A DNA stretch of 47,929 bases from an uncultured Methanosarcinales archaeon (GCA_964594395.1 CAZQLW010000002.1:1-47929); one strand, 5' to 3'; shown: positions 13,954-47,929, counted from the stretch's first letter. Translations and numbers: made by a program. The notes: generated from the sequence alone by a model not told the origin.

Positions 13954-14041
13954 AGTTACGCTTATTTCGGATGTAGCCGCTTATTTCTTGATTAATCTTC
14001 CACAAACGTTTAAAAGTTATCTCAATTCACTTAAACAAAAG

Positions 14042-15179: not shown

Positions 15180-15201
15180 TTTACTTCCTCGAGAGTAGTC
15201 A

Positions 15202-15209
15202 TTTATAAA
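15202..15209 (-). promoter_or_regulatory. TATA box (TTTATAAA) serving the minus-strand 124-aa gene
   Basis: 22 nt to ATG 15179. It is only 5 nt from the tracked GTG 15214 of map, which argues against that start. Confidence 0.45.
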
Positions 15210-15223
15210 TCTTGTGACAAAAC

Positions 15224-15231
15224 ATTTAAAA
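15224..15231 (+). promoter_or_regulatory. TATA-like box (ATTTAAAA) for map
   Basis: 24 nt upstream of ATG 15256. Confidence 0.35.
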
Positions 15232-15255
15232 CAAACAACAATTATTAAAGAAACT

Positions 15256-18105: not shown

Positions 18106-18233
18106 CTTTTTGTAGTTACAACTAATTAAATAAGAATTACTGATGATGAATACAATCAACTCGTGTAGTAGTTGTCATATTTATCTAAAAATGGAGTAGA
18201 TATTTAAATGTTTTGGAGCTAAATTAATCAACT

Positions 18234-19706: not shown

Positions 19707-19753
19707 CTAAGATAAGAAAAATAAAAGAGTTTAAAAGTGTTTGCTGAAAAAAA

Positions 19754-27008: not shown

Positions 27009-28295
27009 TTATTTTCTACTTTTTGGTTTTACTTTAACTTTTTTTTTTGCTCTTTTCCTTCCAGTAGCTTCATCCTCAGCATCTTCTCTTTTTGTAGTCT
27101 CTTCAGCAGCTTTCTGTGTTGCTTCTGCTGCTTTTTTTTCTTGAGCTTCTTCTCTTTTTGCTTCTTCTACAAAATTGTCTAAAGCTTGAATAATTGCTCC
27201 ACAGATTGGTGCAATTTTTTTAATCTCAGTTTCAATCTCTTGAACTTTATTGTCCCAATCAGAATCTGTTGGTTTAGGTATTTCAATATTTTCTGCTATT
27301 GTTAAAGCCATGCCACTCTCAGCATAAAGTTGGTCAAAATGATTGTAGGCTGTACCCTGTTCTTTTCCTCTGATTCTTTTAAGATGATGAGTTGCATGTT
27401 CAAGATGTGTTTTAAGATTGTGTAATTTATCTTTAGCACTTTTTGCAGCTTTTTCTTTATCTTTTTTGTTTAACGAATTAATTATATCGTTACAATCGTT
27501 AATCGCTTTTACCAAATAACCTTTAGGGTGTCTGATATGTCCTTCCCTTCTTTCTCTTGATCTTCGTTTTTTTCTTGCATCGTCTGCTTGTGCATAGCGA
27601 GCAATTTCACTCTGTCTTTTCCGTTCTCGTTCTGCTTTTCTATCTCCGGCACCTTCAGCACGATTTAAAGTAAAAGCCCGAATAGCAGCAATAATCATTG
27701 CTAAAAGCATGATTAGGAAACCCCAACCAATAAGGTTATCCAGACTTAATAAGAATCCAGCGAAAGTTGCCCCTACAGAAATAGCAATCGCAATTGCTAA
27801 CATTACTTCTTCTTTTAACGCTTCACTTTCATGGACAAGTTTGAAACTGATATAGGCAACGATAGCAGCGATAGCTAACCCACCCCAGACTCCGAACGGA
27901 GCAAGAAGATAATTAAGTCTTTCTGTGGTACTTACTCCGGTATTAGTTTCGGCAATGAAAATAGCAAATGTTGATAATGCGGAAGCGGCAACTGCAAAAA
28001 TTTTACCTTGTTTGTTAACTTCCCCTTTAGAACCAAACAGTTTTAAGTTTCTGATCCCTTCCATGAAAATAGCAACGAAAATTACAAAGTAAAGAATGAA
28101 CGAAATAAAGTAAGCGTCTTCTATACTAGCATTACCAGTAAATAAACCTTTGAAAAAGGAAAGTACATCTGAAAAGATACCTCCTACTCCTGTATTTGAA
28201 ACGTAATCTCCTGGTGTTGGTACAGCTGCAAAAACAGTTATGGAGAATAAGCTTATCAAAATTAATGTTGGTAAAATAATATTTTTAAGTTTCAT
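27009..28295 (-). CDS. array paralog P1: signal peptide + conserved polytopic membrane domain + R/K/E-rich helical tail (uncharacterized family)
   Basis: N-terminal ~205 aa align with P2-P4 (FMEGIRNLKLFGSKGEVNKQGK, LAPFGVWGGLAIAAI, NLIGWGFLIML). Strong SD AAGGTGATCC upstream. Confidence 0.7.
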   Translation of the reverse strand: MKLKNIILPTLILISLFSITVFAAVPTPGDYVSNTGVGGIFSDVLSFFKGLFTGNASIEDAYFISFILYFVIFVAIFMEGIRNLKLFGSKGEVNKQGKIFAVAASALSTFAIFIAETNTGVSTTERLNYLLAPFGVWGGLAIAAIVAYISFKLVHESEALKEEVMLAIAIAISVGATFAGFLLSLDNLIGWGFLIMLLAMIIAAIRAFTLNRAEGAGDRKAERERKRQSEIARYAQADDARKKRRSRERREGHIRHPKGYLVKAINDCNDIINSLNKKDKEKAAKSAKDKLHNLKTHLEHATHHLKRIRGKEQGTAYNHFDQLYAESGMALTIAENIEIPKPTDSDWDNKVQEIETEIKKIAPICGAIIQALDNFVEEAKREEAQEKKAAEATQKAAEETTKREDAEDEATGRKRAKKKVKVKPKSRK

Positions 28296-28381
28296 TGAGG
28301 ATCACCTTCTTTTTTTAATAATAATTTAATCTTAATACTATTATATAAAAAGTTAAGTTATATAAATATTTCTTTAAGAAG

Positions 28382-31096: not shown

Positions 31097-31115
31097 CTTC
31101 CTCTTTTTTTTACTT

Positions 31116-32399
31116 TTACTTCTTCATAGCTTCTAATTTTGCTTCTTCAAGTTTAAATTCTTTTTTTGCGTTTTCAAAAATTCTAACTAAAGCAGTATCG
31201 GCTTTGATTGCTTCTTTTAAAATGTCTTTTAGTTGTAAATATTTGGCTTTTGTTCCTCCTCCTCTACCAGCATCACCTTTGATATAAGGACTTACATGGG
31301 CACCAAATTTTGCACCTAATGTTCCTAAAACCTTGTCAAATTGTCCATTTCTTGCTTCTAATTTAATTAAATCTTTCCAATACACTTCTATCTTTTGTTT
31401 CCAATTTTTAATTTTTCTTTTTTGGCCATCATTGGCTTTATTTTCTAATTTGTTTAAGTGTTTAATAAAGTGATCAAGTCTTCTTCTCATTCGGCGTAAA
31501 GTCCTTTCTTCTCTTTTAACTTTAATATATTTGAACTTTTTAGTGTCTCCTAACTTACCATTTTTTTTCTTATATTCATCATCTAACTGTTTGTCTACTG
31601 TTTTTAACCAAGCGAATTCAGCAATGGAAAATTTTTCTAATTTTTCTGCTTCTTTTTTACCTTTGTCTTCATCACTTATAGATTCACCACCAGAATCTTC
31701 TCCTCCACCAAGAATTCCTCCTCCTCCACTACTACTTCCACCACTTCCTCCAGAAGAAGTTGAACCACTGCTATTAGATCCGCCGCCTTTAAACATGGTA
31801 AAAAGTCCAATTATTAATGCTATCATCATAATAATGAAACCATAGCCAATAAGGTTAGGTTCAGAAATAAACCATCCACCGAACATTAAACCTGCTGAAA
31901 AAGCGGTGACCGCTCTTATGCCAGTGTGACTTTTTAAAAAATCTGCTTCTTTAGTTGCTAAGAAAATTATTAAAGTCATTATACCGGCAATGGCTAGACC
32001 CGCCCAAACACCGAAAGGAGCAAGTGCGTTTTTCATCATTTCTCCAGTAGATTGGCCAGTGAATTGTTCGCCCATAAAGATTGCTGCTACTGAAAGGAAA
32101 GTTGCTGCAAATGCAAACCATTTTCCGGGCGTATTAATTTCTCCTTTTCCGCCAAAAAGTGGAAGGAACTTTAATCCTTCAACATAAATTGCCATGATTA
32201 AAATAAAATAGGCAATGTAAATTAAGAAATAACTTTGTTCTGCATCAGCTGAACCTGTAAACATGTCCATGAAGAAACTTCCTGCGTTTTTGAACATTTC
32301 GCTGAATGTGGGCATTCCTTCTTGAGCAAGAACACCGAACGAAAGTAATCCGATCAGAGCTAAACAAATTGTTAATAAAATAATATTTTTAGTTTTCAT
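31116..32399 (-). CDS. array paralog P3: same membrane domain + Gly/Ser linker + helical K/E-rich tail
   Basis: YVEGLKFLPLFGGKGEINTPGKWFAFAAT, LAPFGVWAGLAIAGI and NLIGYGFIIMM. GGTGAT SD. 6-nt gap to P4. Confidence 0.7.
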   Translation of the reverse strand: MKTKNIILLTICLALIGLLSFGVLAQEGMPTFSEMFKNAGSFFMDMFTGSADAEQSYFLIYIAYFILIMAIYVEGLKFLPLFGGKGEINTPGKWFAFAATFLSVAAIFMGEQFTGQSTGEMMKNALAPFGVWAGLAIAGIMTLIIFLATKEADFLKSHTGIRAVTAFSAGLMFGGWFISEPNLIGYGFIIMMIALIIGLFTMFKGGGSNSSGSTSSGGSGGSSSGGGGILGGGEDSGGESISDEDKGKKEAEKLEKFSIAEFAWLKTVDKQLDDEYKKKNGKLGDTKKFKYIKVKREERTLRRMRRRLDHFIKHLNKLENKANDGQKRKIKNWKQKIEVYWKDLIKLEARNGQFDKVLGTLGAKFGAHVSPYIKGDAGRGGGTKAKYLQLKDILKEAIKADTALVRIFENAKKEFKLEEAKLEAMKK

Positions 32400-32405
32400 G
32401 ATTAA

Positions 32406-33614
32406 TCACCTGTTCATTTTATTTTCAATTGAATCTTTTTTTAACTCTTCTATTAATTCATTATCAATTGCTTTTAATGCTGATGTCGCTTTAGCTATTT
32501 TTTGAGTGATTTTTAATGCTTCTTCTAAAGTTTCTTTTGCTTTTACTTTAGTTTTAGCATTTTCTGCATCTTTAAGTTTATTTTTCAAATTAATTTTTAA
32601 TTCTTTTTCTAAAACGCCACTAAAAACTGTTAATTTCTCTTTAGTTTCCGGGTTCTTAGTAATCACGTTCTCAATTTTTCCTACTGCGTCTGTTACAAAA
32701 CGATCAAAATTTATTGCTTTATCTTCATATCTTGAAGCCGCTCTAATTTCTTCTTTTGCTTTTTTAAGCGTTCCTTTTGGTCTTTTTAATTCTTTTAAAG
32801 CGTCTTTAATTTCATCAGTAGTTTTCTTATTATATCTCCAAACATTTCTTAATGCTTGAACCAATTTTTTGGTTAGAGTCTTTCCCGTTTTAGGGTTTTC
32901 TGGCCCCGGAGTTGTTGGTGAATCATTTCCATCACCTTTATCCATATATTTCGCTTTACCAAAAAAAGTATTTCCATCATCAGGAGTATCATTGTAATGT
33001 TTGACAATAGCCACAATAACTCCAACAACAATCGCAATTATCAATATAAAATATCCCCAACCAATGACGTTTGCTTGAGAAAGAAAAAACCCGGCAAAAA
33101 TCATTCCTACTGCTAAAGAATAAGTTATTCCTAACGTTACATGTTTTTCAAATAATCCGGAATCTTTTCCAGCTAAGAAAACGATTAATGCAAAAATTCC
33201 TGCCAAAGCAAGACCTGCCCAAACTCCGAAAGGAGCTAAAGCCATATTAATAAGTTCTTGTGACGATTGACCTGAAGCTTGTTCAGCAATAAATATAGCC
33301 ATTACAGAAAGGGTAGTTGCGGCAAAGGCAAACCATTTTCCTGGAGTGCTGATTTCTCCTTTACTGCCAAAAAGAGGTAAGTATTTTATCCCTTCAACAT
33401 AAATTGCGATAATCAGAATGAAGTATGCTATAAAAACAAGGAAATAAGTGTGGTCCATTGATGCCGATCCGACCATTACGCCTTTAGTAAATATGCTTAA
33501 ATCGCTAAACAAATTTTTAAATATTTCACTGGCAGTAGGAACATTTCCATTTTGAGCTAAAGCACTGAAAGAAAAGATTACGAAACTTAACATGAATAAT
33601 AATACTTTTTTCAT
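32406..33614 (-). CDS. array paralog P4 (first gene of the array): same membrane domain + helical K/E-rich tail
   Basis: YVEGIKYLPLFGSKGEISTPGKWFAFAAT, LAPFGVWAGLALAGI and NVIGWGYFILI. GGTGAT SD 5 nt upstream of the ATG. Confidence 0.7.
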   Translation of the reverse strand: MKKVLLFMLSFVIFSFSALAQNGNVPTASEIFKNLFSDLSIFTKGVMVGSASMDHTYFLVFIAYFILIIAIYVEGIKYLPLFGSKGEISTPGKWFAFAATTLSVMAIFIAEQASGQSSQELINMALAPFGVWAGLALAGIFALIVFLAGKDSGLFEKHVTLGITYSLAVGMIFAGFFLSQANVIGWGYFILIIAIVVGVIVAIVKHYNDTPDDGNTFFGKAKYMDKGDGNDSPTTPGPENPKTGKTLTKKLVQALRNVWRYNKKTTDEIKDALKELKRPKGTLKKAKEEIRAASRYEDKAINFDRFVTDAVGKIENVITKNPETKEKLTVFSGVLEKELKINLKNKLKDAENAKTKVKAKETLEEALKITQKIAKATSALKAIDNELIEELKKDSIENKMNR

Positions 33615-37139: not shown

Positions 37140-37949
37140 ATGAACCATATCTGGCAAATCACAGAAGAAGAGAAAAAATTACCACACCTTAACAGTCCGA
37201 TTTTTATTGAAGGGCTTCCAGGAATAGGTAATGTTGGTAAGATTGCAGTAGATTTTTTGGTTGAAGAATTAAAAGCTAAAAAACTGTACACTTTTTTCTC
37301 TTACCGCTTTCCTCATTCAGTATTTGTTAACGAAAAAAATTTAGTGGAAATGCCGAAGATTGAAATTTATTACAAAAAATTTGGTAACAAAAGTAAAAAG
37401 AAAGACCTGTTGCTTTTAACAGGTGATATTCAACCGATTGATGAAGAAAGTTGTTACACTTTTTGTGAAGAAATTTTAAAAATTGTTAAACATTATAAAT
37501 GTTCAGAAGTAATCACTACTGGTGGAATTGGGTTACAAACTCCTCCCGAGAAACCTAAAGTTTATTGCACTGCAAACAACGACAAATTGTTTAAAGAGTA
37601 TACAAAAAAAGGCATCCATATTGAAAAAAATATTTTTGGTATTGTCGGTCCGATTGTCGGCGTTTCCGGAGTACTTTTAGGGTTAGGCAAAAAAAGAAAA
37701 GTTAAAGGTGTAGCTCTTCTAGCAGAAACCTATGGGCATCCGATGTATCTTGGAATTAAAGGTGCAAAAGAACTTTTGAAAGTTTTAGAAAATAAACATA
37801 ACTTTGGTATGAACTTAAAAAAGATGAGTAAAGAAATTATTGAAGTTGAAAAAGAATTATTGAAAAAAACAAAAGAGTGGGCTCAGGAAATAGTTAGTAG
37901 TCGAGCAGGAGCTCAAGCAAAAAATAAAGATATGAGTTACATCGGATAA
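37140..37949 (+). CDS. PAC2-family (proteasome assembly chaperone-like, COG1938) protein
   Basis: IFIEGLPGIGNVGKIAVDFLVEEL and LLLTGDIQP are typical of archaeal PAC2/PbaA-like proteins. Confidence 0.65.
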   Translation: MNHIWQITEEEKKLPHLNSPIFIEGLPGIGNVGKIAVDFLVEELKAKKLYTFFSYRFPHSVFVNEKNLVEMPKIEIYYKKFGNKSKKKDLLLLTGDIQPIDEESCYTFCEEILKIVKHYKCSEVITTGGIGLQTPPEKPKVYCTANNDKLFKEYTKKGIHIEKNIFGIVGPIVGVSGVLLGLGKKRKVKGVALLAETYGHPMYLGIKGAKELLKVLENKHNFGMNLKKMSKEIIEVEKELLKKTKEWAQEIVSSRAGAQAKNKDMSYIG

Positions 37950-38063
37950 ATTAATTCTTAACCTTTTTTTCTGTTAAATGTACTCTTTTCATTAATATTT
38001 TCATTTTTTTCTCCATTTTTTATAACTATTTTCAGATATTCTTAAGCTGAGCAGTTCAAAAGC

Positions 38064-38071
38064 TTTATAAA
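38064..38071 (+). promoter_or_regulatory. BRE/TATA (AAAAGC-TTTATAAA) for the surface-protein locus
   Basis: 23 nt upstream of ATG 38095. Confidence 0.5.
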
Positions 38072-38094: not shown

Positions 38095-40092
38095 ATGTAC
38101 AAAAAGAGGGATAGAAAAAGTCTATTTAGTTTAATATTTAATAGTTTTAGCTCTAAGAAAGCACAAGTTACAATTTTTATCATTTTAGGAATCGTTTTGT
38201 TATTAGCAGTAGTCTTAGTTTTTACATTAAAAGAAGAGATCACTAAATTTAAACCAGAAGAATTAATTACTCCTACAAAAGGTAAAGTTGAGAATTTTAT
38301 TATAACTTGTATGGATAAAGTTGGTGAAGAAGCTCTTTTTAAAGTCGGACTGCAAGCTGGTTACATTGAAGTTCCTGAAGAAATTGTTAAAGATGCTAGT
38401 ATGAATTTAAAAGTATCGCCGATGAACGTTGTCCCTTATTGGGCTGAGGGTCCGAATACTCACATCCCTTCTTTAGAAGAAATAAAAATTAGAATTGATA
38501 AATATCTTGAAGAAAATGTTCGTAACTGTTTATTTGAAATGCAAGCTTTTCAGAGTACTTATAACTTAATTGAAAAAACTCAACCTCTCGCAGATACAAA
38601 AATTGGTGAAAATGGTGTTATTTTTAATTTAAAATGGAATGTAGAAATACGTGATAAGTCTGGCGAAGTTATTACTGAAGTTATTAACCATGTTTCTGAA
38701 TCAAGGATAAAACTGAAACAAGTTTACGAAATGGCAAGAAGGGTTGTAGAGAAAGAAATGGAAGTTTTAAAATTTGAAGATATTACTCAAGATTTGATTT
38801 CTCTTGAACATCCCGATTTACCAGTTTCTGGCATTGAATTGAAGTGTACTAAAAAAACTTGGGAATTACAAAAAGTTAAAGATACATTACTGAACATGTT
38901 ACGGATAAATATTCGTGAACTAAAAATTCAAGGGACAGAATTTGTAGAATTTCCTGAAGAGTTAACTTATTACCAAAACCATTACATCTGGGACATTGGC
39001 GAAGATTATATTAATCCTGACGTGAGTGTAGCATTTAATTTTGATGAACGTTATCCTTACACTTTTGCAGTAACACCTTTATCCGGTAACAAAATGAAAA
39101 GTTCACAAATGGGTGGTGGTGAGATGCTTTCTTTTTTATGTATTCAAACTTGGAAATTTACTTATGACTTAATTTATCCTGTTTTAGTGAGGGTTAGAGA
39201 CGAAACTACTGGTTATGAATTTAATACTGCTTTTACTGTCCATTTGATAAAAAATACACCTTATCGTGGCGAAGCTTATGCTCGGCCATCTTATATAGTA
39301 GAAAAAGCAACTGATGAAGATTATTGTAAAAATTTGAATGTTCCTTTAACAGTTTACACGAACGAATTGGTAGAAAATAATTATACCGGAGTTTATTACA
39401 CTGACCCGTTAGAAGATGTTAATTTAAGTTTTACATGTTTACGTTACCGTTGCGAAATGGGCCAATCTGAATACGATTTTGCTGCTCAAGGGCACGTTGC
39501 GGGAATAATTACCAATTTTCCTTACTGTGTTGGCGGAATTTTACGTGGTGTTAAAGAAGGTTATAAAGAAGATTGGGTAAGAGTAGTTACTTCTCCAAGT
39601 AAAGAAGTTGAACTAAATTTAGTGCCTGTTTTTGAATTTCCATTAAACAAAGTTAAAGTTGTAAAACATCAACATTTTGAAGATGGTCAAGATTTATCTC
39701 CTGCTGAACCGTTAGGTAACGAAATGGCTTTGATAACTTTAACTTATCGTAAACAGGGTGATACTTTTGATCAACCTTACCACAAAGTTACGCAAGTAAT
39801 CTCTAAACAACTTAACACAGATTTATTTGAACAGGAATCGTTTGAATTTTTGGCTAAAGCTGATTTTACTTACGATTTAGAAATTAACCTTTTAAGTGAA
39901 GAAAAATTTTTGGGAGGATACAAAGGTAACTGGACAGTTGATTGGGACCAGTTAGAATCTGGAAATGAAATTATTTTCCATGTTTTTGCTAACGATAATC
40001 CTTCTGACGAGGAAATGTTTGGGTTAATGACGGGTTTGACAGTAAAAAGTAAAGATGTACCAGTTCCAGAAATAATCACATCACAGAAATAA
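38095..40092 (+). CDS. 665-aa secreted/anchored protein with a class III (type IV pilin-like) signal peptide
   Basis: Basic n-region followed by KKA|QVTIFIILGIVLLLAVVLVF. The rest has no recognisable domain and 8 Cys. Confidence 0.6.
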   Translation: MYKKRDRKSLFSLIFNSFSSKKAQVTIFIILGIVLLLAVVLVFTLKEEITKFKPEELITPTKGKVENFIITCMDKVGEEALFKVGLQAGYIEVPEEIVKDASMNLKVSPMNVVPYWAEGPNTHIPSLEEIKIRIDKYLEENVRNCLFEMQAFQSTYNLIEKTQPLADTKIGENGVIFNLKWNVEIRDKSGEVITEVINHVSESRIKLKQVYEMARRVVEKEMEVLKFEDITQDLISLEHPDLPVSGIELKCTKKTWELQKVKDTLLNMLRINIRELKIQGTEFVEFPEELTYYQNHYIWDIGEDYINPDVSVAFNFDERYPYTFAVTPLSGNKMKSSQMGGGEMLSFLCIQTWKFTYDLIYPVLVRVRDETTGYEFNTAFTVHLIKNTPYRGEAYARPSYIVEKATDEDYCKNLNVPLTVYTNELVENNYTGVYYTDPLEDVNLSFTCLRYRCEMGQSEYDFAAQGHVAGIITNFPYCVGGILRGVKEGYKEDWVRVVTSPSKEVELNLVPVFEFPLNKVKVVKHQHFEDGQDLSPAEPLGNEMALITLTYRKQGDTFDQPYHKVTQVISKQLNTDLFEQESFEFLAKADFTYDLEINLLSEEKFLGGYKGNWTVDWDQLESGNEIIFHVFANDNPSDEEMFGLMTGLTVKSKDVPVPEIITSQK

Positions 40093-40126
40093 AATTAAAA
40101 TTGAAATTGAAAAAAGTAAAAAAATA

Positions 40127-43100
40127 ATGGGAATTAACAAATTTAACCGATGTTGGAAAGTTATCGTAATTTTGGTACTAATACTTTTACTTAATTTACC
40201 CATCATAAGTGCTTTGGAAATATCTAATGTTCGGGTTGAAGATGTTACTGAAACTAGTGCCGTTGTTAAATGGGACACCGATGAAGCTAGTGATAGTTTT
40301 GTTAGTTACGGGAAAGAAAAAGATAATTTGGAAACTATCGGCGATGCTAGTTCTGTTACTAATCATCAATTTACTTTAACGGACTTATTACCTGAAACTA
40401 CTCATTATTACGGTGTTGAAAGTAATGAAGTTGTTGATGATAATTCTGGACAATTATATTCATTTCAAACTCTTACTCCAGACACTACTGCACCTCAGCT
40501 AGTTGTTGAAATGCCGGAACTTGTTCCTGGCAACAAGTTAAGTTTTATTGGTTGGACGGAACCGGGAGCGAAAGTTATTGTTTATGTTAATGGAGATCAA
40601 GCTGGTTCAACAACTGCATTTGAAGAAAAAATAGAAGAAGTTACTGAAATTGTTGAAACTCCTGCTGTTGAAATTGAAGATGTTGAAACTACTGAAACTG
40701 TTGAAGAAGAGTTAACTGTTAACGAAACTAGTGTTCCTGAAGCTGAAGCTGAAATTGAACAGGTGTCAGAAAACAATGAAACTGAAGAGAGTGTAACTGA
40801 AACCGAAAATGAAAGTGAAGCCCTTGCTGGAGAATCTATCGCTACTGGTTTTGCTGCTGAAAATGATAAAGTGGAAATAGTAGATTCTAGTCAAAAACCG
40901 AAAGGTAAATTTGAATTTTCTAACATCATTTTACAAAATAATGAACAAAATACAATAAAAGTTGAAGCAATAGATCAAGCAGGTAATTCTGTAAGTTTTG
41001 AGGGACAAGTTTTTGCTGATACTAGTAAACCAAAATTAGAATTTGAAGACTTGCCTGAAATTGTTGACAAAAATTCTTTCGAATTAAAAGGTAAATTGTC
41101 TGAAAATTCTACTTATGAAGTTTTTGTTAACAATAAATCCGTTTTTACTGGCGATGGAGACAAGATTGAAGATAGTATCACTTTAGATGAAGGAGATAAC
41201 AATGTTGTTGTAGTTATTAAAGATTCTGCTGGTTGGGAAGTAACTAAAAAGTTTGTAATTTATTCTGATACTCAGCCTCCTGCAGTGAAAATTGAAATTG
41301 AAAAAGGTAAAGATTATTATCAAGGGAGAGCAGTATCTAGTATTCATGGAGAAACCGAACCAGGAGCAACAGTTTACCTTTATGTTTATCGCCCTTTAGG
41401 TTACGAGTACACTGCAAAATTTGATAAAGCTTGGGAAAAAGTTACTGCTGACGAAAATGGTGAATTCACTTTTAAAGATGTTAATTTTGAAAATAAGCCA
41501 ATCAATCTTAAAGATTTGGCTCCAAAACAAGTTCCTTCCGGACTTCAAGAAGATGTAGTTTTTTCTGTTCAACAACTTGCTGAACAAGAAGAAGTTAGTT
41601 ACAAAGTTTATGTACTTGCTGAAGATCGTGGTGGAAGGACTAGTTATGCTCAGGAATCAATCAATTTGAAAACTTGCCGTTCTGCTAATTGGGCTTTTGA
41701 CGTTTTATCTATGCCCCAGTTTCAAGCTCCGTTAAGGTTAGACCCAGGATTAGTTGATGAAGGAAGAGAAATTGTTCAAGCAGTTTTTAATTTTTCTTAT
41801 CGCGGTCAGGGAGTAGCACAAAGAGATTTAGCTACAGGAAATGTCTTACCAGGTAAAGAAGCTTACATCATTAACGGTGTCAGTTTTGATAAAGCTTGTA
41901 CAGAAGGATTGTTGGATGATAAAAGTTTTCAATTAGGTTGTTCAATTCTTCCTCAACAACCAAGAGGGGCCACTCCTAACGCTGACAAAACTGCTTGGTT
42001 AGTAAACTTTAATTTGCACAGTGCAGAAAAAATCAGTGAAACTGAGGAAGATTTTTGGAACGAGTTTAAGAAAAGGCAAGTTATGTTTCCATTAAAAATA
42101 ATGGTCAAGTATCAAGAACGAGGTTCTGATGGTAAATTGGGACCGCCAAAAACTCAATCTAGCTGTTATGATTTAAGTTATTTTGTTGACATTCCTATTG
42201 ATAGTAAAGATATGTTACCCGACTGGATTGCTGATGAGGGGATAGAAGCCATTCAATTTACTTTGGATAAGATTGATTTAATTTTACCTTACCTTGAAAA
42301 AGCAATTATGATATCGGGTGTTGCTTGTATCGGTTCATTTTTTGGAAGAATGATTGTGAGGTGGTTAAGAGTTGTTTATTCAGAATGGGAAGGTTATACC
42401 TCTTCGTTAACTGGCGGTGGTGGTGATTCCGGTGGTAATGGTGAGGATAAGTGTCCTACCAATCAAAACAAATTGTTGTTAGAAAGTACAAAAAAACATT
42501 GGGAAGAAGTTGAAAGTGAATTATTTAAAAATGAAGTTAACAAGCCAAGAATAAAAAATTGGAAAGAGCAAAAAACTCTTGATGATCTTTGTCCAAAAAC
42601 GGCAGCAATGTGGAAAGCTGAAAATCTTTTAGATACAGTTTACCGTTGGAGTTGTGACCGACTACTTTGTCGAGCAGTGCCTGCTGGTTGGACTTCTGAT
42701 AGGGATAAAAAAGATATTGATACGGTAATTATTTCTCAGAAAAGATGTACTGCTACTAGTAGGGGAATTCCTTTGCAACCACAAGAAAATTGTCAAAAAC
42801 TTATTGCTCAAACAGTTTCCGGTGGTGCATCGACAAGTTCTAAAGCACTTGAATTGAAACGGGATGGAGCTTTCCCTTGTTACAAGAATCCTATCAATGA
42901 TCAATTATATTATGTTGGTGAACCTGCTAAAGGTGTTGTTGACGAACCAAAAATATTGCCACTGGAGTGGTTAGGTCGACATGGATTATCTTTACAAGAA
43001 GGGTTAAACATTGATGGTGAAGATTTGATTGCTTACAAACCTGCAGGTTCTAAAGATATTATTGTGGGGACCGATCAAAGTTGTAATTATGTTTGTTCAA

Positions 43101-45802
43101 GGATGAGCGGTTATAAAGCTGATCAAGAAGGTGGGATTGAAAGTGTAAACATGCTTACTAAAGATAAAGGTAATTTTGGTTGTTATAAAGAAGTTATTGA
43201 TGAGGTTTCTGGAGAAACTCGTCTTGCAAACGATGCAGGTTATTTGAAAGGTTCTGACAAAATTCCTGCTGCTTATTACACACAAGATTGTTTTGTTAAT
43301 GTTGATGATACTGGAAAAATTCCTGAACGAACAGGAGCAGATACAGGGATGTTACAATGTGTTTGTACTCCTAAAGAAGGTGATACAGAAAAAACTTTTG
43401 GTTCAAGAACTGCAGCTAAAGAAATTGATAATCAGGCAGAAAATTGGGTTTACCGTCAGGCAGAAGTGTTTAAAATTAGTAATGGTGTCCAGGGGACATT
43501 TTATCCAAAATGGAGATATTATAAGGGGAGGGACGTTTCTTCCGCTTTTGGTGCAGACTATTTAACAGACAATTTCCGTAGTGAAAAAACTGTCCATGAG
43601 ATTAATCCTTCCACGCAACATATTGGTGCATTTCAAACAGTTTGTTTATCTGGGATTAGAGCAAGGTTAATGACTTTAAAAAGTATTTTAGAAGGGTTAA
43701 AGAATTGTATCGTGGAAGCTAAAATTACTGGTTTGCATGATGCTGGTGTTTGTAAAACTTTGTTTACTCAACACGTTTGTGGTTTAATCTATAAAGCAAT
43801 TGCTTACTTCTTTACTGATTGTAGCCCTTATTCAGTAAAAGATGAAGCTAATAAAGGTACTTTTGATCAAGTGGGAAAGTTTTTTGAAATTGGTTTAGGA
43901 GCAATGGGTGACGCGATGCAAACTTCTATTGACGATATTCAAGATGATTATGGTAATGCTCACCTTAACCAGTATTTTGCTACTGGCGTGAAAGGTTTTG
44001 CACAATCAATTTGTATGGCAGCTTTCGGTTACGATTTTCCAATGGGGATGGACTTTATCCAAGATGCAGCTTATGCTTTCCCAACAAAAACTACTGTCCA
44101 TGTAATTCCTGCCGAAAGGGAACTTTCTACTTATAATCCTGTAAATGGTCAAGCAATTTATAATTATAATATTGGGGCAATGGCCCTCCCTGGTTGCAAA
44201 ATTAGAAGTTATAAAGTTTATTTGAAATGTGTGGGTCAAGAAGATTATGGTAGTCCTGGAGTACAGTGTGGTACCCAAAAATGTGACTGTTTACAAGCAA
44301 CAGATCTTAGCGGGACAGAACTAAGAAGTTATCCTCTTGATGGTGGTCAAGGTTTTGATTTAAGTTCAGCAAGTTTCTTTTCATTTCCAATTCCAGCACC
44401 ACAAAAAGTAGATTCGCCTTACCGTTATGATCACGTTGTTGCTGAATTACAGTTGGACCCTTACGAAGACCCATCCAAATGTTTTGATGAAGGTTATCGT
44501 GATGGTAAATTTTATTTCCCCATCATTGACATTTCTCCACCATCAAAGTTTACTTGTCAAGTACAATCAACTTCTGGTAAATATACTTGTCCAGAAGTTG
44601 CAGGGATGTTTAGTGCTGCTGGTAGTGGTGCTTACCTTCAAGATCCTTACATTAGTTGTTACGATAAAACTACACAAACTTATGTGAGTTGTAAAACACC
44701 AAACCTTTTTACTAAAGGCGATGAAATTAAAGTTAAACTACATCTTGCAACTGATGGTGGCCAGTATTGTATTAGGACAACAGTTACAGGGATACAACCG
44801 GAACATGCCCTTCCAAGTATTCCTAAACCTATCCCACAAGGGTTAGCTACTACCCATACTCCAGTAATTAATCTTGGAACTGTTAATGAAAACATGTTTT
44901 CTGGAGCAGCGAATACTTTAATGTTATCCGAGAGTGAAAGTGATTCTGGTTGTAGTAACTTGGTCCAGTTTGATTATGTTCCGCAGTCAGGTGTTCAATC
45001 AGGTTCTTACAGATTCTCTTACAGTACACAAAATGGAAAATATAGAATAATCATGCCACAGGGAGTTGTTCCTGATAGTCCTTACCTTCCTGGTCAGGGA
45101 AATATTTTACAGGATCAAGCAAATAATCAATGGTTCTCTGGTGAACAATTGAAAGAAGTTAAATTTAATATTGGTGGATTTAAAGCACATAATCTTATTG
45201 GTTCGCCAATTGGCAATAAAAAAGTTTGTGTTTACCATGTTGGTCAATCTGCTGGCGGTGGATTTGCTCAAGGTGAAAAATCTATTCGGATTAACGCTGA
45301 AATTTTGCAAGCTGACCAGAATGGCGGTTGTTATAATGTTGACCATCAAGTAGTTGCTCCCACATTTGGTTTGGCTGCTGCTCAGGAAAACATTCTTATT
45401 CGTTTAAATCCACTTATTTCTATTGTAGCTAGTAAAATGCATGAAGAGTTTATTAGGAACAATCACGGTTATGTAATTGCGGAAGCAGATGCGATTATTA
45501 ACCGTAAACAAGCAGATATGGAAGATGTGGTTGCTTTATATTATCGTGTAGCTGCCCAGATTACGCAAGCAGGCGATCAATGGAAATCACAGTCAGAATC
45601 AATTTGTAATTATTTGAAAATCTTCTTTGATCGAGAGTATCCTGGATTGGATGAAGATGCACCAAAACATGACCCGGAGATAAAAAACAAAGGTGAGTAC
45701 ATTAAAGTTGATTATTATTTTAGAGAAATTGCGAAAAGTGCAAGCTGTACAAATATTGTAAAATTAGGTGGTAGTGCTCAAACAACTGCTGTTCAAACTT
45801 AA
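40127..45802 (+). CDS. 1891-aa giant surface protein: signal peptide, FN3-like and Ig-like domains, acidic E/T/V-rich spacer, internal hydrophobic segment, Cys-rich ~1100-aa C-terminal region
   Basis: A single uninterrupted ORF. aa 30-115 (ISNVRVEDVTETSAVVKWDTDEASDSFVSYG...HYYGVES...YSFQT) match the FN3/purple-acid-phosphatase-N pattern. The hydrophobic segment is at aa 726-746. About 35 Cys lie after aa 775 by hand count. Confidence 0.75.
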   Translation: MGINKFNRCWKVIVILVLILLLNLPIISALEISNVRVEDVTETSAVVKWDTDEASDSFVSYGKEKDNLETIGDASSVTNHQFTLTDLLPETTHYYGVESNEVVDDNSGQLYSFQTLTPDTTAPQLVVEMPELVPGNKLSFIGWTEPGAKVIVYVNGDQAGSTTAFEEKIEEVTEIVETPAVEIEDVETTETVEEELTVNETSVPEAEAEIEQVSENNETEESVTETENESEALAGESIATGFAAENDKVEIVDSSQKPKGKFEFSNIILQNNEQNTIKVEAIDQAGNSVSFEGQVFADTSKPKLEFEDLPEIVDKNSFELKGKLSENSTYEVFVNNKSVFTGDGDKIEDSITLDEGDNNVVVVIKDSAGWEVTKKFVIYSDTQPPAVKIEIEKGKDYYQGRAVSSIHGETEPGATVYLYVYRPLGYEYTAKFDKAWEKVTADENGEFTFKDVNFENKPINLKDLAPKQVPSGLQEDVVFSVQQLAEQEEVSYKVYVLAEDRGGRTSYAQESINLKTCRSANWAFDVLSMPQFQAPLRLDPGLVDEGREIVQAVFNFSYRGQGVAQRDLATGNVLPGKEAYIINGVSFDKACTEGLLDDKSFQLGCSILPQQPRGATPNADKTAWLVNFNLHSAEKISETEEDFWNEFKKRQVMFPLKIMVKYQERGSDGKLGPPKTQSSCYDLSYFVDIPIDSKDMLPDWIADEGIEAIQFTLDKIDLILPYLEKAIMISGVACIGSFFGRMIVRWLRVVYSEWEGYTSSLTGGGGDSGGNGEDKCPTNQNKLLLESTKKHWEEVESELFKNEVNKPRIKNWKEQKTLDDLCPKTAAMWKAENLLDTVYRWSCDRLLCRAVPAGWTSDRDKKDIDTVIISQKRCTATSRGIPLQPQENCQKLIAQTVSGGASTSSKALELKRDGAFPCYKNPINDQLYYVGEPAKGVVDEPKILPLEWLGRHGLSLQEGLNIDGEDLIAYKPAGSKDIIVGTDQSCNYVCSRMSGYKADQEGGIESVNMLTKDKGNFGCYKEVIDEVSGETRLANDAGYLKGSDKIPAAYYTQDCFVNVDDTGKIPERTGADTGMLQCVCTPKEGDTEKTFGSRTAAKEIDNQAENWVYRQAEVFKISNGVQGTFYPKWRYYKGRDVSSAFGADYLTDNFRSEKTVHEINPSTQHIGAFQTVCLSGIRARLMTLKSILEGLKNCIVEAKITGLHDAGVCKTLFTQHVCGLIYKAIAYFFTDCSPYSVKDEANKGTFDQVGKFFEIGLGAMGDAMQTSIDDIQDDYGNAHLNQYFATGVKGFAQSICMAAFGYDFPMGMDFIQDAAYAFPTKTTVHVIPAERELSTYNPVNGQAIYNYNIGAMALPGCKIRSYKVYLKCVGQEDYGSPGVQCGTQKCDCLQATDLSGTELRSYPLDGGQGFDLSSASFFSFPIPAPQKVDSPYRYDHVVAELQLDPYEDPSKCFDEGYRDGKFYFPIIDISPPSKFTCQVQSTSGKYTCPEVAGMFSAAGSGAYLQDPYISCYDKTTQTYVSCKTPNLFTKGDEIKVKLHLATDGGQYCIRTTVTGIQPEHALPSIPKPIPQGLATTHTPVINLGTVNENMFSGAANTLMLSESESDSGCSNLVQFDYVPQSGVQSGSYRFSYSTQNGKYRIIMPQGVVPDSPYLPGQGNILQDQANNQWFSGEQLKEVKFNIGGFKAHNLIGSPIGNKKVCVYHVGQSAGGGFAQGEKSIRINAEILQADQNGGCYNVDHQVVAPTFGLAAAQENILIRLNPLISIVASKMHEEFIRNNHGYVIAEADAIINRKQADMEDVVALYYRVAAQITQAGDQWKSQSESICNYLKIFFDREYPGLDEDAPKHDPEIKNKGEYIKVDYYFREIAKSASCTNIVKLGGSAQTTAVQT

Positions 45803-45803
45803 A

Positions 45804-46406
45804 ATGAAAAATAAAAAAGGTAAAGTTGCTACAGAATTGTTAATTATGTTAATTACGGTAGTGGTAACCAGTGCAATAATTTTTCTTTTAGTTCAAGGAG
45901 GAGTGTTAACTGTAAAAATGGAAGCTGAACAAACCTCTGTGCTGAATACAGAATTTATTCCAATGGGCAGAGAAGGTTCTCTTGCTGTTAAAGATTTTAA
46001 ATTTTGTGGTTTTGTTGATTTGAATTATCAATGTATTAGTGAAACAGAAGAATTTTATTTAGGTTCGGAAGTACATTTCATTTTCATAATTGAAAGTAGT
46101 ACTTCTAATGGTGATATTATGTTGGTGGAAAATTATATGGTTAAAGGTCCAGAAGGAAATATACTGTTAGATGTTGATGAAAAAAATAATTTTAATTTTG
46201 ATATTATTAGTAAAGAGCGTCAGGAATTAGTTACGTTTAAAGATTTTTTTGTTGTCGGTGAAGAATTAGAAGAAGGTGAGTATACTTTGGAACTTTTTGT
46301 AGAAAATCCTTTGTTGAATAAGAAAACCACTTTAATCAAGAAATTTATGATCCATCCAAAAGAATTTGAAGAATACGAAATAGATTTTACTGAAATTGAA
46401 GATTAA
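45804..46406 (+). CDS. 200-aa type IV pilin-like protein (start revised from 45768)
   Basis: MKNKKG|KVATELLIMLITVVVTSAIIFLLV is a short basic leader ending in Gly, with Glu at +5 and a ~20-aa hydrophobic helix. The ATG lies 1 nt after the giant gene's TAA. Confidence 0.6.
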   Translation: MKNKKGKVATELLIMLITVVVTSAIIFLLVQGGVLTVKMEAEQTSVLNTEFIPMGREGSLAVKDFKFCGFVDLNYQCISETEEFYLGSEVHFIFIIESSTSNGDIMLVENYMVKGPEGNILLDVDEKNNFNFDIISKERQELVTFKDFFVVGEELEEGEYTLELFVENPLLNKKTTLIKKFMIHPKEFEEYEIDFTEIED

Positions 46407-46420
46407 AAAAAAAGAATGAA

Positions 46421-47929
46421 ATGGTGGGGGAAACGTTTAGAGGGAAAGGTAGCTTATTGTTTTTGCTAGTAATTGTTTCTTTTTTAATTATTAGTTCTTC
46501 TTCTGTTTTTGCTGATTCCTGTAATAATGATAAAATTGCTTTGTTAGGAGATTCTATAACGAATTACCAGGGAACAAAAAGTTGGGGTAATGAGTTTAGA
46601 AAAATTTGTGGGGATTCACCTGTTAATTTTGCACACAGCGGGAAAAAAACTGATTGGATGCTTCAAAGACTTAAAGGTGAAGTTGATGACTCATCTCCTT
46701 ATACTTCTGGGAAAATATTGGGTCAAGGATACAAATATTTAATTGTTTTAGGTGGTACTAACGACATTACTGCTGGTTGGGATACAAGTGAAACTAAATC
46801 AAATTTGGAACAAATATATTTTACTGCTAAACAAAATGGGATGTTAGTTATTGCTGGAACAATAACTCCTTATAATGTTGCTAATCATCCAGCAAGAAAT
46901 GAAAAGGTTAAAGAGATTAATAAATGGATAAAATTACAACATCAATTAGGACATATTGATGGAGTTATTGATTTTTATAGTCTTTTAATAGGAGCAGAAC
47001 CTTGTATGGGTTCGGAGTATGGTCCGGCTTCTTGTAATAATGTTCACCCAAATACTGTTGGTTATAAAGCGATGGCCAATAAAGTTGTTAACGAAATATT
47101 TGGCGGTCAAACAATAATTGAACAAACGGCAAGTGCACAATTATCTACCTCTGCAACAGTTCCGGACTTTAAAACAATGATGATTTTAGGGTCACACAAT
47201 TCTGGGACAAGAGTAAACCGTGTGGATGAAGCTTACAAATTAATTCAGCAGGGTAATTTTGAAAATATTATAGTCACTGGTGGATGTGGTGCACATGATA
47301 CAGCTGCAGATAATTGTGAAGCTCAACATATGGCCCAATTGTTGTTACAAAAAGGTGTTTCTGCTAACAGGATTATTCTTGAAGAAAAAGCTAAGTCTAC
47401 CAGTGGAAATTATAAATATTCTCGAGAATTAACTTTACCGCAAACTACAGGGATAAAAGTAATTAACCCTAACGATAAATTGCTTGTCGTTTCTAGTAGT
47501 GAGAATGTTAAAGCAGTAGCTTATTGTTTTAGGTACAAAGATCAAGTTGATGCTTATTATGTTCAAGTTCCAAATTCTTATACTCCTGCCGTGATACCTG
47601 TTAATTATGATGGTGGAAGTTATAAAAGCATGGTTAACGGTTGCCGACTTAGTGGTCAACAATTAACACAGCAACAATCTCAACCACAAAGTCAACAACA
47701 GCAATATCCACCACAACAACAGTATCCACAGCAAAGTCAACAAGGGCAATATCAATCAACATTTATCCCTAAACCTGTTCTTGGTTGTAAAGATGGACAA
47801 AGATGTCAAGAAGTTGATCAAGTTTGGAGTGAACGTTTAAGTAGTTTAATGGGTGGTAATGGTCAAATTTGGGACCATAACATAAATGCACTTGCAGATT
47901 ATAAAAGCACTTATTTTGAAGAAAGACAA
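46421..47929 (+). CDS. secreted SGNH/GDSL hydrolase - DUF218 (YdcF/SanA-like) fusion protein with a Q/P-rich linker; 3' partial (runs off the window)
   Basis: Not in the ORF track. I translated all 503 codons by hand and found no stop. Signal peptide LLFLLVIVSFLIISSSSVFA. SGNH blocks LLGDSITN, GGTND and NVHPN. DUF218 pattern IIVTGGCG...CEAQHMAQLLLQKGVSANRIILEEKAKSTSGNYKYS...LLVVSS. Q-rich run at about 47651-47760. Confidence 0.75.
   Translation, partial: MVGETFRGKGSLLFLLVIVSFLIISSSSVFADSCNNDKIALLGDSITNYQGTKSWGNEFRKICGDSPVNFAHSGKKTDWMLQRLKGEVDDSSPYTSGKILGQGYKYLIVLGGTNDITAGWDTSETKSNLEQIYFTAKQNGMLVIAGTITPYNVANHPARNEKVKEINKWIKLQHQLGHIDGVIDFYSLLIGAEPCMGSEYGPASCNNVHPNTVGYKAMANKVVNEIFGGQTIIEQTASAQLSTSATVPDFKTMMILGSHNSGTRVNRVDEAYKLIQQGNFENIIVTGGCGAHDTAADNCEAQHMAQLLLQKGVSANRIILEEKAKSTSGNYKYSRELTLPQTTGIKVINPNDKLLVVSSSENVKAVAYCFRYKDQVDAYYVQVPNSYTPAVIPVNYDGGSYKSMVNGCRLSGQQLTQQQSQPQSQQQQYPPQQQYPQQSQQGQYQSTFIPKPVLGCKDGQRCQEVDQVWSERLSSLMGGNGQIWDHNINALADYKSTYFEERQ

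Follow-up and report, generated by a model that had tools for sequence, protein, structure and literature searches.

A Conserved Three-Protein Locus of Woesearchaeota, Linked to Exchangeable Secreted Enzymes, Suggests an Apparatus for Contact with Bacteria

Results

We analyzed four same-strand genes in tight succession within a 47,929-nt stretch of DNA (the window, taken at full length). They encode a 665-aa protein (p665), a 1891-aa protein (the giant), a 200-aa protein (p200), and a secreted SGNH-DUF218 protein, with gaps of 34, 1, and 14 nt (Table 1). The reading frames, their spacing, and the BRE/TATA before gene 1 are exactly as the initial annotation described. The BRE part upstream of TTTATAAA is purine-rich. 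Since the arrangement aaag-TTTATAAA also precedes many other genes of the window at the same distance and was not found 5' of genes 2–4, a single-promoter operon is plausible. Genes of relatives overlap by 4–8 nt, which suggests translational coupling; the first three genes are hereafter the trio. All four products are predicted to be exported, p665 and p200 by way of prepilin-type N-termini and the giant and the enzyme by Sec signals. AglB is encoded within the 48-kb window.

Table 1. Features of the locus, in window coordinates (a slash marks a cleavage site)
Feature	Position	Strand	Basis
Promoter-like BRE (caaaag) and TATA (TTTATAAA, 38064-38071)	38057..38071	+	24-31 nt 5' of first ATG
p665, class III pilin-like N-terminus, without known family	38095..40092	+	ORF, homolog search
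p665 class III-type signal (predicted cleavage KKA/QVT after aa 23) and strongly hydrophobic helix aa 24-47	38095..38235	+	Motif, ΔG
p665 aa 46-400, alpha/beta, essentially sequon-free	38230..39294	+	AF2 model, sequon counts
p665 aa 401-665, tandem beta-sandwich domains, sequon-tolerant	39295..40089	+	AF2 model, sequon counts
Giant secreted protein, 1891 aa	40127..45802	+	ORF, homolog search
Giant Sec signal peptide, aa 1-29, conserved ..SA/LEISNV	40127..40213	+	Sequence
FN3 / Pur_ac_phosph_N domain, aa 32-115	40220..40471	+	Pfam
Acidic E/T/V-rich spacer, aa 168-240	40628..40846	+	50-77% gaps in family; 3 of the window's sequons
Ig-like domains and pre-helix region, aa 251-725	40877..42301	+	Pfam, Cys and sequon conservation
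Marginally hydrophobic conserved helix, aa 726-746	42302..42364	+	Hydropathy, model, summed ΔG
Cys-rich C-half, aa 760-1891, sequon-free, without known family	42404..45799	+	Cys conservation, model, sequon counts
p200, pilin-like, KG/KVATELL, Glu at +5, small Cys-pair domain, sequon-free	45804..46406	+	Motif, sequons
Gene 4, 5' part only (continues past window end), Sec-secreted multidomain enzyme	46421..47929	+	ORF from ATG 46421
SGNH/GDSL hydrolase domain	46544..47071	+	Pfam 65 bits (gathering cut-off 32.9)
DUF218 domain	47177..47560	+	Pfam 61 bits (gathering cut-off 27.6)
46-aa noncatalytic module (CKDGQRCQEVDQVW...IWD...Y), candidate docking module	47786..47920	+	Shared sequence

In each of 84 loci, p665, the giant, and p200 follow one another in this order as far as flanking sequence is available (76, 84, and 77 matches); homologs are strictly syntenic rather than scattered. 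Colinear orthologs on many independent contigs leave no sign of assembly chimerism across 40–46 kb. Relatives of the giant occur in at least 136 GTDB species of Woesearchaeota/Nanoarchaeia. The divergence of the three proteins is matched (45/42/45% and 53/50/54% identity), with housekeeping neighbors at 68–74%, and the locus adjoins PAC2 and GatD in a stable position. In divergent clades, the giant is retained and the gene at the p665 position encodes ~650–730 aa, but peptidoglycan enzymes are not encoded next to them. Searches of Pfam, NCBIfam, PHROGs, and PDB gave no match for the trio beyond the N-terminal FN3/Ig domains of the giant. Fold searches neither support nor define a mechanism, as they yielded nothing more specific than beta-sandwiches of a generic kind (TM-scores < 0.15) and weak BFVD matches.

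More than 355 homologs of p665, at 50–62% identity, are all ~660 aa long and all annotated as hypothetical, and 8/8 Cys residues are invariant. The p665 N-terminus reads KKA/QVTIFIILGIVLLL (family consensus KKGQVTIFIILGI), and KK[GA]/Q[VI]T[IL]FIILGI is conserved across the family; that of p200 reads KKG/KVATELLIMLI, with KG/[KR]xAxELL and the Glu at +5 conserved. Both proteins combine the basic n-region, [KR][GA] cleavage motif, and ~20-aa hydrophobic helix of a class III signal, and the summed Hessa ΔG of about −5 (−5.2) indicates that the p665 helix is a true membrane helix. These class III-type N-termini are conserved in both families. The proposal of an exported surface locus with two pilin-like members is supported. 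The 48-kb window has no gene for a pilus ATPase, platform protein, or prepilin peptidase, and Pfam families of the peptidase_A24, T2SE, and T2SF type are absent from the 33 window ORFs scanned (most ORFs of at least 100 aa); such genes may be located in other parts of the genome. In Foldseek, p665 gives weak matches to PitA (a pilus-tip adhesin), SlaB, and cohesins, which concern aa 401–665, and to carbohydrate-binding-like beta-sandwiches; the SlaB match is a generic beta-sandwich match only (E = 9e-5, query TM-score 0.13). Sequons N443 and N612 are conserved in aa 401–665.

Relatives of the giant number 623 cluster representatives (50% identity). Most of the best 150 are 1600–2300 aa long, with the position of the conserved core unchanged. 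Pfam confirms the FN3/Ig character proposed for its N-terminal repeats, with matches that cover aa 32–380 only: Pur_ac_phosph_N reaches 33 bits (cut-off 30) and the Ig-like Glucodextran_B 37.9 bits (cut-off 27) at aa 312–379, while the fn3 profile scores under its cut-off. The family profile matches FN3 domains of tenascin and Dscam. Within aa 251–725, Cys 517, 591, 605, and 680 are invariant and sequons N336 and N555 are conserved. Conservation across the family is lacking for two features that the initial annotation singled out: the acidic spacer, which is lineage-variable, and a GGGGDSGGNG hinge. Its estimate of about 35 Cys in the last ~1100 aa agrees with the 35 counted in the C-half, 32 of which are invariant or near-invariant in the family. 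This half is predicted to fold into helical bundles and beta-sandwich arrays, and it proved to be as devoid of recognizable similarity as first reported, with no assignment to an enzyme family.

A Cys-rich half behind a possible transmembrane segment (TM) had appeared puzzling, and two explanations had been offered: either the segment is not a TM, or the Cys-rich half is cytoplasmic or metal-binding. The segment, aa 726–746, sits inside a predicted 63-residue helix (aa 699–761). Conserved Arg residues then follow, an arrangement that would fit a stop-transfer signal. Kyte-Doolittle values of the segment are 1.6–2.3, under threshold in many homologs, and its summed ΔG is +3.6. Across the family, 36 Cys are invariant and spread on either side of the helix; no CxxC-type metal-binding motifs occur among them.

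Observed and expected counts of N-glycosylation sequons bear on the same question. Sequons are almost absent from the giant C-half (30 observed versus 392 expected; ratio 0.08), from p200 (3 versus 86; 0.03), from p665 aa 46–400 (2 versus 126 in 60 homologs; 0.016), and from the enzymes encoded at position 4 (0.04). The ratio is 1.18 in p665 aa 401–665 and neutral, 0.93–1.13, in cytoplasmic-like ORFs (n = 250), and control motifs in the same sequence sets occur at an observed/expected ratio of ~1. The central helix of the giant marks the border between a sequon-tolerant and a sequon-free zone. Folding or packing constraints, instead of wall penetration, could give rise to sequon avoidance.

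A bitopic giant (FN3/Ig half outside the cell, Cys-rich half in the cytoplasm and metal-binding) would be consistent with the long predicted helix and, given the Arg residues, with the positive-inside rule. Such a topology is nevertheless scarcely credible: the C-half lacks sequons where cytoplasmic ORFs are neutral, the invariant Cys run on past the helix without CxxC-type motifs, the predicted model contains beta-sandwich arrays, the helix has an unfavorable ΔG, and the C-terminus is fused in one homolog to a domain otherwise found in secreted enzymes. These sequence properties resolve the question in favor of a segment that is not a conventional TM, being too weakly hydrophobic for autonomous insertion. 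The Cys-rich half is probably disulfide-bonded.

Gene 4 contains a visible LLGDSIT block, and both domains assigned to its product in the initial annotation are recovered by Pfam (Table 1); O-acetyl-peptidoglycan or lipid are candidate substrates of the SGNH domain. At the closest locus (L005, trio 84–90% identical), its ortholog (54–73% identity, 1011 aa) has an added Metallophos domain. The SGNH-DUF218 protein is not a fixed member of the block, however, since position 4 is a variable cassette that across 61 loci mostly encodes a multidomain peptidoglycan hydrolase or esterase, with Sec signal peptides in 54/61 proteins. The domains found are, among others, GDSL (16), SLT (14), FGE-sulfatase (14), DUF2272 (11), Metallophos (6), M15_4 (5), Amidase_2 (5), M23 (4), Phage_lysozyme2 (4), Polysacc_deac (3), and Glucosaminidase (2), along with M74 at one locus (L087). 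For the SGNH, Metallophos, FGE-sulfatase, and Exo_endo_phos domains, specificity for peptidoglycan is not clear.

The 46-aa module is present in 52 of the 61 cassette proteins, which span more than 15 catalytic families. It is linker-flanked, lies at variable positions in the enzymes, is carried by one to three enzymes per locus, and is confined to ORFs downstream of p200 (64 loci), with a single place in the window. As in polymorphic effector systems, a shared noncatalytic module is thus found on unrelated effector domains linked to a conserved apparatus, and we regard it as a candidate docking tag. One giant homolog (P0057) is a domain fusion: its C-terminus and the lysozyme-like domain of a cassette enzyme, itself a separate protein, are 43% identical (E = 5e-39).

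Discussion

Few uncultured archaea are as widespread as Woesearchaeota, which belong to the DPANN archaea. Synteny, a single fusion, and common sequence properties lead us to infer that the trio and the enzymes are physically associated. The locus suggests a hitherto undescribed apparatus with which these archaea attach to bacteria, attack them, or feed on them. Our main reading, to which we assign a probability of about one-half, is that the operon encodes a lineage-specific cell-surface complex of Woesearchaeota that would hold an enzyme-bearing head against bacterial walls. After processing by prepilin peptidase, p665 and p200 would anchor the complex through their N-terminal helices, and the weakly hydrophobic central helix of the giant would pack with these helices, not spanning the membrane alone. 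The glycosylatable parts (the FN3/Ig N-half of the giant and the C-terminal beta-sandwiches of p665) would form an exposed stalk, and the sequon-free, Cys-rich parts (the giant C-half, p665 aa 46–400, and p200) a compact unglycosylated head, onto which the enzymes could dock via the 46-aa module. Pressed on the bacterial sacculus, the head would bring about local peptidoglycan degradation and thereby attachment to, parasitism of, or predation on bacteria. We know of no bacterial host of Woesearchaeota. Also counting against this reading are the divergent clades without neighboring peptidoglycan enzymes, the cassette domains of unclear specificity, the lack of pilus machinery genes in the window, and the Arg residues behind the helix. 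The host-contact apparatus proposed in the initial annotation gains strong comparative backing from the strict synteny and the peptidoglycan-hydrolase cassettes; the bacterial wall as its target was not part of that proposal.

Several other explanations can be weighed against this complex. The locus is reminiscent of the cellulosome of Clostridia, with a big noncatalytic surface scaffold containing beta-sandwiches beside diverse enzymes with a short linker-flanked module. By analogy, the trio might be a scaffold whose docked enzymes digest detrital bacterial walls (necromass) for amino sugars and peptides, without touching live cells. The interchangeable enzymes and their module do resemble scaffoldin and dockerin, p665 has weak cohesin-like and carbohydrate-binding-like matches, and the repertoire is broad, including deacetylases, esterases, and phosphoesterases. 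We nevertheless consider this reading doubtful, although it deserves attention. A locus has just one to three module-bearing enzymes; neither cohesin (PF00963) nor dockerin (PF00404) gives a Pfam match in the trio or the enzymes, and the likeness is functional, an analogy only; and the loci inspected contain no linked sugar or peptide uptake genes. Scavenging alone also fails to explain the strict sequon avoidance and the conserved amphipathic/hydrophobic helix. The cellulosome also differs in that it acts on plant polysaccharide, where the enzymes here would attack peptidoglycan or wall polymers of bacteria. The anchors here resemble pilins and do not depend on sortase or SLH domains, and the candidate docking module, of 46 aa, varies in position. 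Going beyond contact, the operon could instead encode a new envelope-breaching machine, in which the docked hydrolases open the sacculus, the glycan-free head, probably locked by disulfides, enters the gap, and helix aa 726–746 inserts into the membrane of the bacterium, as fusion peptides or pore-forming helices do, to give a conduit for parasitising bacteria. This extension is improbable on present evidence.

About equally improbable is the view that the trio forms an envelope, S-layer, or adhesin complex of a generic kind and neighbors the hydrolases for regulatory or historical reasons only, the enzymes being diffusible weapons like Woldo and Danwoldo. In its favor, the best fold matches of p665, all of them weak, include SlaB and a pilus-tip adhesin, and secreted archaeal peptidoglycan hydrolases acting as diffusible weapons are documented (PMC12352652). 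Set against these points are the restriction of the module to genes downstream of p200, the lysozyme domain fused to the giant C-terminus, and the sequon-free signature, which only the enzymes and certain zones within the trio have in common; an S-layer glycoprotein is expected to be sequon-rich, not depleted. An archaeal S-layer of the SlaA/SlaB type is likewise not indicated, as the SlaB fold match is generic, there is no sequence match, and the giant mostly avoids sequons. Two pilin-like proteins, one with Glu at +5, and the phage-tail-lysozyme-type domains of some cassettes could also point to a pseudopilus, similar to a type IV pilus or a type II secretion system, that exports hydrolases, or to a domesticated virus-tail or mobile-element module. 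We view this as very unlikely. The surroundings contain no genes for an ATPase, platform, or peptidase, the enzymes bear ordinary Sec signals, and, as we know of no outer membrane described in the group, a pseudopilus would have nothing to cross. For a phage tail or T6SS-like module, there are no PHROG matches of the trio, no relatives in 2.9 million viral contigs (IMG/VR), and only weak and generic BFVD matches, the catalytic domain in some cassettes being the only phage-like element; the stable chromosomal position beside PAC2 and GatD speaks against a mobile element.

The proposed contact complex shares features with several known systems. T6SS effectors with adaptor domains and Bdellovibrio entry enzymes are alike in concept, in that interchangeable wall-degrading effectors with a shared targeting module accompany a conserved contact apparatus, but no sheath, tube, VgrG, or baseplate was found at the locus by PHROG or Pfam matches. 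Immunity genes would not be needed, since to our knowledge no murein wall is known in the group. Among other DPANN archaea, Nanohaloarchaeum antarcticus has SPEARE proteins, which are likewise secreted and of very large size and have a proposed role in contact with hosts, in that case archaea; their domain content differs, and no homology was detected. We know of no peptidoglycan-hydrolase cassette or pilin-like partners described for them. PilY1 with minor pilins, PitA of Gram-positive bacteria, and the archaeal class III proteins of the bindosome resemble the trio in combining prepilin N-termini with a very large non-pilin partner, but there is no sequence homology and no nearby assembly ATPase or platform, and p665 is far larger than pilins; a filament is not indicated. 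As for the enzymes, Woldo and Danwoldo of Halogranum (PMC12352652) and the lytic murein transglycosylases noted in Woesearchaeota (PMC9723730) are likewise secreted archaeal enzymes directed at bacterial murein, and these papers report peptidoglycan hydrolases as prominent in Nanoarchaeota and Woesearchaeota. In the passages considered, such enzymes are treated as stand-alone, whereas the enzymes of this locus make up a polymorphic cassette, share a module, and belong to one operon with a conserved three-protein apparatus. Woldo and Danwoldo differ further in having Tat signals and PG_binding_1 domains.

A three-protein apparatus without characterized relatives, present in at least 136 species and tied to rotating wall-cutting enzymes, provides a testable handle on contact between archaea and bacteria, and would add a machine-associated class to the recently recognized archaeal peptidoglycan hydrolases. 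Zonal sequon avoidance offers a new sequence-only way to map glycan-free parts of archaeal surface complexes and to test topology. The cassette type could predict host wall chemistry; if the envelope is indeed breached, the walls of Woesearchaeota hosts would be predictable in their chemistry from the enzyme type in the cassette.

Operon Architecture and Genomic Setting

We reproduced exactly the four open reading frames of the initial annotation, with their lengths and gaps of 34, 1, and 14 nt: a 665-aa protein (p665), a 1891-aa protein (the giant), a 200-aa protein (p200), and an SGNH-DUF218 enzyme (gene 4). The promoter proposed there was also recovered, with TTTATAAA lying 24–31 nt upstream of the first ATG and 'caaaag' just 5′ of it. 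Because this BRE/TATA arrangement, found upstream of many genes in the window, is present before the first gene and absent before genes 2–4, the locus fits one transcription unit. It is an operon of exported proteins; gene 4 begins with a Sec-type signal (MVGETFRGKGSLLFLLVIVSFLIISSSSVFA followed by DSC), and its 3′ part lies beyond the window end.

The surrounding DNA is an ordinary AT-rich archaeal chromosome segment (GC about 32%), with genes for a thermosome subunit, HisRS, GatD, PAC2, HerA, and an AglB/STT3 N-glycosylation cluster. This large glycan-biosynthesis and N-glycosylation cluster also encodes Alg14/Alg13-like proteins, a flippase, a B12-radical SAM enzyme, a methyltransferase, BacA, two UDP-sugar dehydrogenases, an epimerase, a nucleotidyltransferase, and a PMM-like protein. 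Elsewhere, four consecutive paralogs (428, 904, 427, and 402 aa) each carry a Sec-type signal, a conserved '..VPTPG..F..LF.G....YF.I..I.YFIL' motif, and a second hydrophobic segment. Their sole Pfam match is a papain-like Peptidase_C1 in the 904-aa member, and they may represent another family of secreted or membrane proteins without assigned function.

Coordinates of features in the window and in related loci (L numbers)
Feature	Location	Strand	Remark
Glycan cluster	window 22–16152		
AglB/STT3	window 4421–7246	−	within glycan cluster
Four paralogous ORFs	window 27009–33614	−	
PAC2	window 37140–37949		proteasome-assembly chaperone-like
BRE/TATA element	window 38064–38071		
Four-gene operon	window 38095–47929		
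Gene 4 start codon	window 46421		ATG
Tandem repeat	window 47695–47729		18 nt, 1.9 copies
46-aa module	window 47786–47920		gene 4
Recurrent post-cassette ORFs	L006:16353–17591 and 18177–20066		
Sequon-free secreted protein	L023:3783–5864		outside operon
Sequon-free secreted protein	L046:20960–23257		outside operon

Conservation and Evolution of the Trio

The p665–giant–p200 trio is invariant. By tblastn across 84 related loci, p665 was detected in 76, the giant in 84, and p200 in 77, and the gene order is constant wherever the flank is present; the trio genes of relatives frequently overlap by 4–8 nt. Searched by sequence and by profile against Pfam, NCBIfam, PHROGs, and PDB, the trio returned nothing besides the N-terminal domains of the giant (FN3/Pur_ac_phosph_N, aa 32–115, and Ig-like, aa 312–379, its only Pfam matches); p665 and p200 have no Pfam match, and profile–profile comparison revealed no relationship between p665 and the giant.

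The Cys-rich C-half of the giant (aa 760–1891), used as query, retrieved 63 proteins, most of them full-length (about 1700–2100 aa) and 31–85% identical across most or all of the query. Some are unnamed and the rest are labelled simply "hypothetical" or "fibronectin type III domain-containing"; all named entries derive from Woesearchaeota/Nanoarchaeota MAGs. A giant profile found 623 members among 1.84 billion cluster representatives, and the best 150 of these mostly measure 1600–2300 aa and share the relative placement of the conserved core. Relatives of the giant occur in at least 136 species (one genome scanned per GTDB species), and p665 has more than 355 homologs, all about 660 aa, at 50–62% identity. 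A viral origin was rejected, as the trio has no relatives in IMG/VR.

The three proteins diverge in step: p665, giant, and p200 are 45, 42, and 45% identical to their counterparts in locus L001 and 53, 50, and 54% to those in L003, compared with 68–74% for the neighbors PAC2 and GatD. This matched divergence indicates that the trio acts as a co-evolving envelope complex, changing faster than housekeeping genes. Scattered homologs and assembly chimerism, both listed in the initial annotation as refuting outcomes, are ruled out by these results.

In 44 of the 84 loci, the gene directly preceding the trio is PAC2, and GatD often lies beyond it; this adjacency may be a matter of phylogenetic inertia and not of function. 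Synteny also reaches past the operon, since ORFs of ~410–423 aa (enolase where Pfam-scanned) and ~627–632 aa recur 2–6 kb downstream of p200. In a divergent clade (giant homologs P0063, P0241, and P0316 at loci L004, L085, and L086), the giant is retained, as is an upstream protein of about 650–730 aa in L004 and L085. Peptidoglycan enzymes are not found next to the giant in these loci, and p200 is missing as well from L004, perhaps suggesting that enzyme coupling is a derived feature of one subclade.

An Interchangeable Enzyme Cassette

The gene after p200 forms a cassette of polymorphic peptidoglycan enzymes with a shared module. A Pfam scan of the ORF directly after p200 in 61 loci yielded Lipase_GDSL_2 (16 loci), SLT and FGE-sulfatase (14 each), DUF2272 (11), Metallophos (6), Peptidase_M15_4 and Amidase_2 (5 each), Peptidase_M23 and Phage_lysozyme2 (4 each), Polysacc_deac_1 and DUF218 (3 each), Glucosaminidase and Hydrolase_2 (2 each), and VanY and Lysozyme_like (1 each); in 6 loci the position holds enolase and no enzyme gene of the cassette. 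Further loci add Peptidase_M74, deacetylase+3D+Metallophos, and DUF218+Amidase_2 combinations. Sec signal peptides are present in 54 of the 61 proteins, and the seven exceptions comprise the six enolases plus a short ORF.

The SGNH and DUF218 domains that Pfam assigns to gene 4 were found by tblastn in just 9 and 5 of the 84 loci, respectively. At the closest locus, L005, the trio is 84–90% and the enzyme 54–73% identical to the window. Its 1011-aa gene 4 ortholog comprises SGNH, DUF218, a Q-rich linker, a Cys-rich region, and Metallophos. Gene 4 is a member of the cassette series.

Iterative HMM searches identified a 46-aa motif (consensus NCLNSQRCKEIDEVW...VWD...W...Y) at variable positions, flanked by low-complexity linkers, in 52 of the 61 cassette proteins. 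When all loci and the window were searched in six frames, the module occurred solely in plus-strand ORFs downstream of p200 (positions 4–6; 64 loci), and within the window in gene 4 alone. Such a distribution would look like that of a docking or targeting tag, for which the module is a candidate. Its alignment gave nothing significant against 5.8 billion sequences, a database size for which the module is too short. The only tandem repeat found lies in gene 4, in the Q/P-rich linker that joins DUF218 to the module.

Giant and cassette are also connected by a domain fusion in one giant homolog. The C-terminal extension of this homolog, P0057 (aa 1851–1998), matches Phage_lysozyme2 and shares 43% identity (E = 5e-39) with the lysozyme-like domain of a separate secreted cassette enzyme at L010; P0057's own locus reads PAC2-667-giant-186, followed by an M74 murein endopeptidase. 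The extensions of P0005, P0018, P0042, and P0063 have no Pfam assignment. That of P0005, beyond the position of window aa 1891, carries three possibly lectin-like 'DGDTITLKSAHxTYCSSW...' repeats, and those of P0018, P0035, and P0042 contain small Cys-rich 'CG..W..Y.C...GC.G...CCP' modules without a Pfam match.

Sequon Avoidance and Topology

The strongest evidence on topology, and a new observation, is that N-glycosylation sequons (N-x-S/T) are nearly missing in some zones of these proteins and normal in others. The signal is meaningful because the glycan cluster with AglB encodes machinery that N-glycosylates exported proteins.

Observed and expected sequons per protein set or zone
Set or zone	Observed	Expected	Ratio
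Giant C-half, 52 homologs	30	392	0.08
p200	3	86	0.03
Cassette enzymes	14	345	0.04
p665 aa 46–400	2	126	0.016
Giant N-half	192	250	0.77
p665 aa 401–665	102	87	1.18
250 cytoplasmic-like ORFs, same loci	354	357	0.93–1.13

For the C-half and the enzymes, four control motifs gave ratios of about 1. The window's own C-half contains no sequon (6.4 expected) and neither does its gene 4 (4.3 expected), and the tolerant zones hold conserved sequons (N336 and N555 in the giant; N443 and N612 in p665). In the giant, the boundary between the sequon-tolerant and sequon-free zones coincides exactly with the central helix (aa 726–746). Two signal-peptide proteins outside the operon, at L023 and L046, also have zero sequons against 6.6–7.1 expected, so sequon-free secreted proteins may form a larger class in these genomes.

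Counterselection of sequons is sensible only for a polypeptide exposed to oligosaccharyltransferase; the C-half, like the enzymes, is therefore exported. The giant has 36 invariant or near-invariant Cys, 4 before and 32 after the helix, with no CxxC-type metal motifs among them; even counts also occur in p665 (8, all invariant) and the window's p200 (2). We reject the cytoplasmic or metal-binding C-half that the initial annotation had entertained. The GGGGDSGGNG hinge and acidic spacer it described were rejected as functional elements, neither being conserved.

The hydrophobic segment is conserved (LPYLEKAILVTGVGCISSFLGRMxxRWxRI) within a predicted 63-residue helix. It is just marginally hydrophobic, with a Kyte–Doolittle value of 1.6–2.3 that falls below threshold in many homologs and a summed Hessa-scale ΔG of +3.6 kcal/mol, compared with −5.2 for the p665 N-terminal helix. 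It could bundle with pilin-like helices or insert into a target membrane.

An AF2 model of giant aa 692–1891 (pLDDT 76, pTM 0.51) predicts, in order, a long helix, a helical region, mixed beta structure, a helical bundle (aa 1174–1316, inside the protein's most conserved stretch), beta-sandwich arrays, and a helical C-terminus. For p665 (pLDDT 83), the model predicts an N-terminal membrane helix, an alpha/beta region (aa 60–400), and three beta-sandwich domains. Foldseek matches were confined to weak, generic tandem beta-sandwiches (integrin legs, alpha-2-macroglobulin, transglutaminase barrels, PitA, SlaB, and cohesin; TM-scores <0.15 in the top matches), and no enzyme or pore-former fold appeared for the C-half in PDB and BFVD or for p665 in PDB. 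The C-half could not be placed in any known enzyme family, an outcome that the initial annotation had listed as refuting if it occurred.

Interpretation

We propose that the trio would form a surface scaffold with its pilin-like helices as anchor. The glycosylatable FN3/Ig and beta-sandwich parts would be an exposed stalk, and the glycan-free parts, probably disulfide-bonded, a head on which the enzymes may dock. The target of such a complex would be bacterial cell walls. The earlier host-contact hypothesis is partly supported and, with the bacterial wall as the target, made more specific. We prefer attachment to or parasitism on living bacteria as the purpose; alternatively, the complex might scavenge detrital murein, or the trio might merely be co-expressed with diffusible weapons.

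Published work already describes peptidoglycan hydrolases as prominent in Nanoarchaeota and records murein transglycosylases from Woesearchaeota; where these sources discuss such archaeal enzymes, they are treated as stand-alone (PMC12352652, PMC9723730). A limited literature search found no description of the operon, the module, or the sequon pattern, and prior description is possible. The observation proved genuine and of greater interest than its first description suggested: the locus is a widespread, uncharacterized surface complex of Woesearchaeota, with genetic coupling to interchangeable hydrolases of the bacterial wall.
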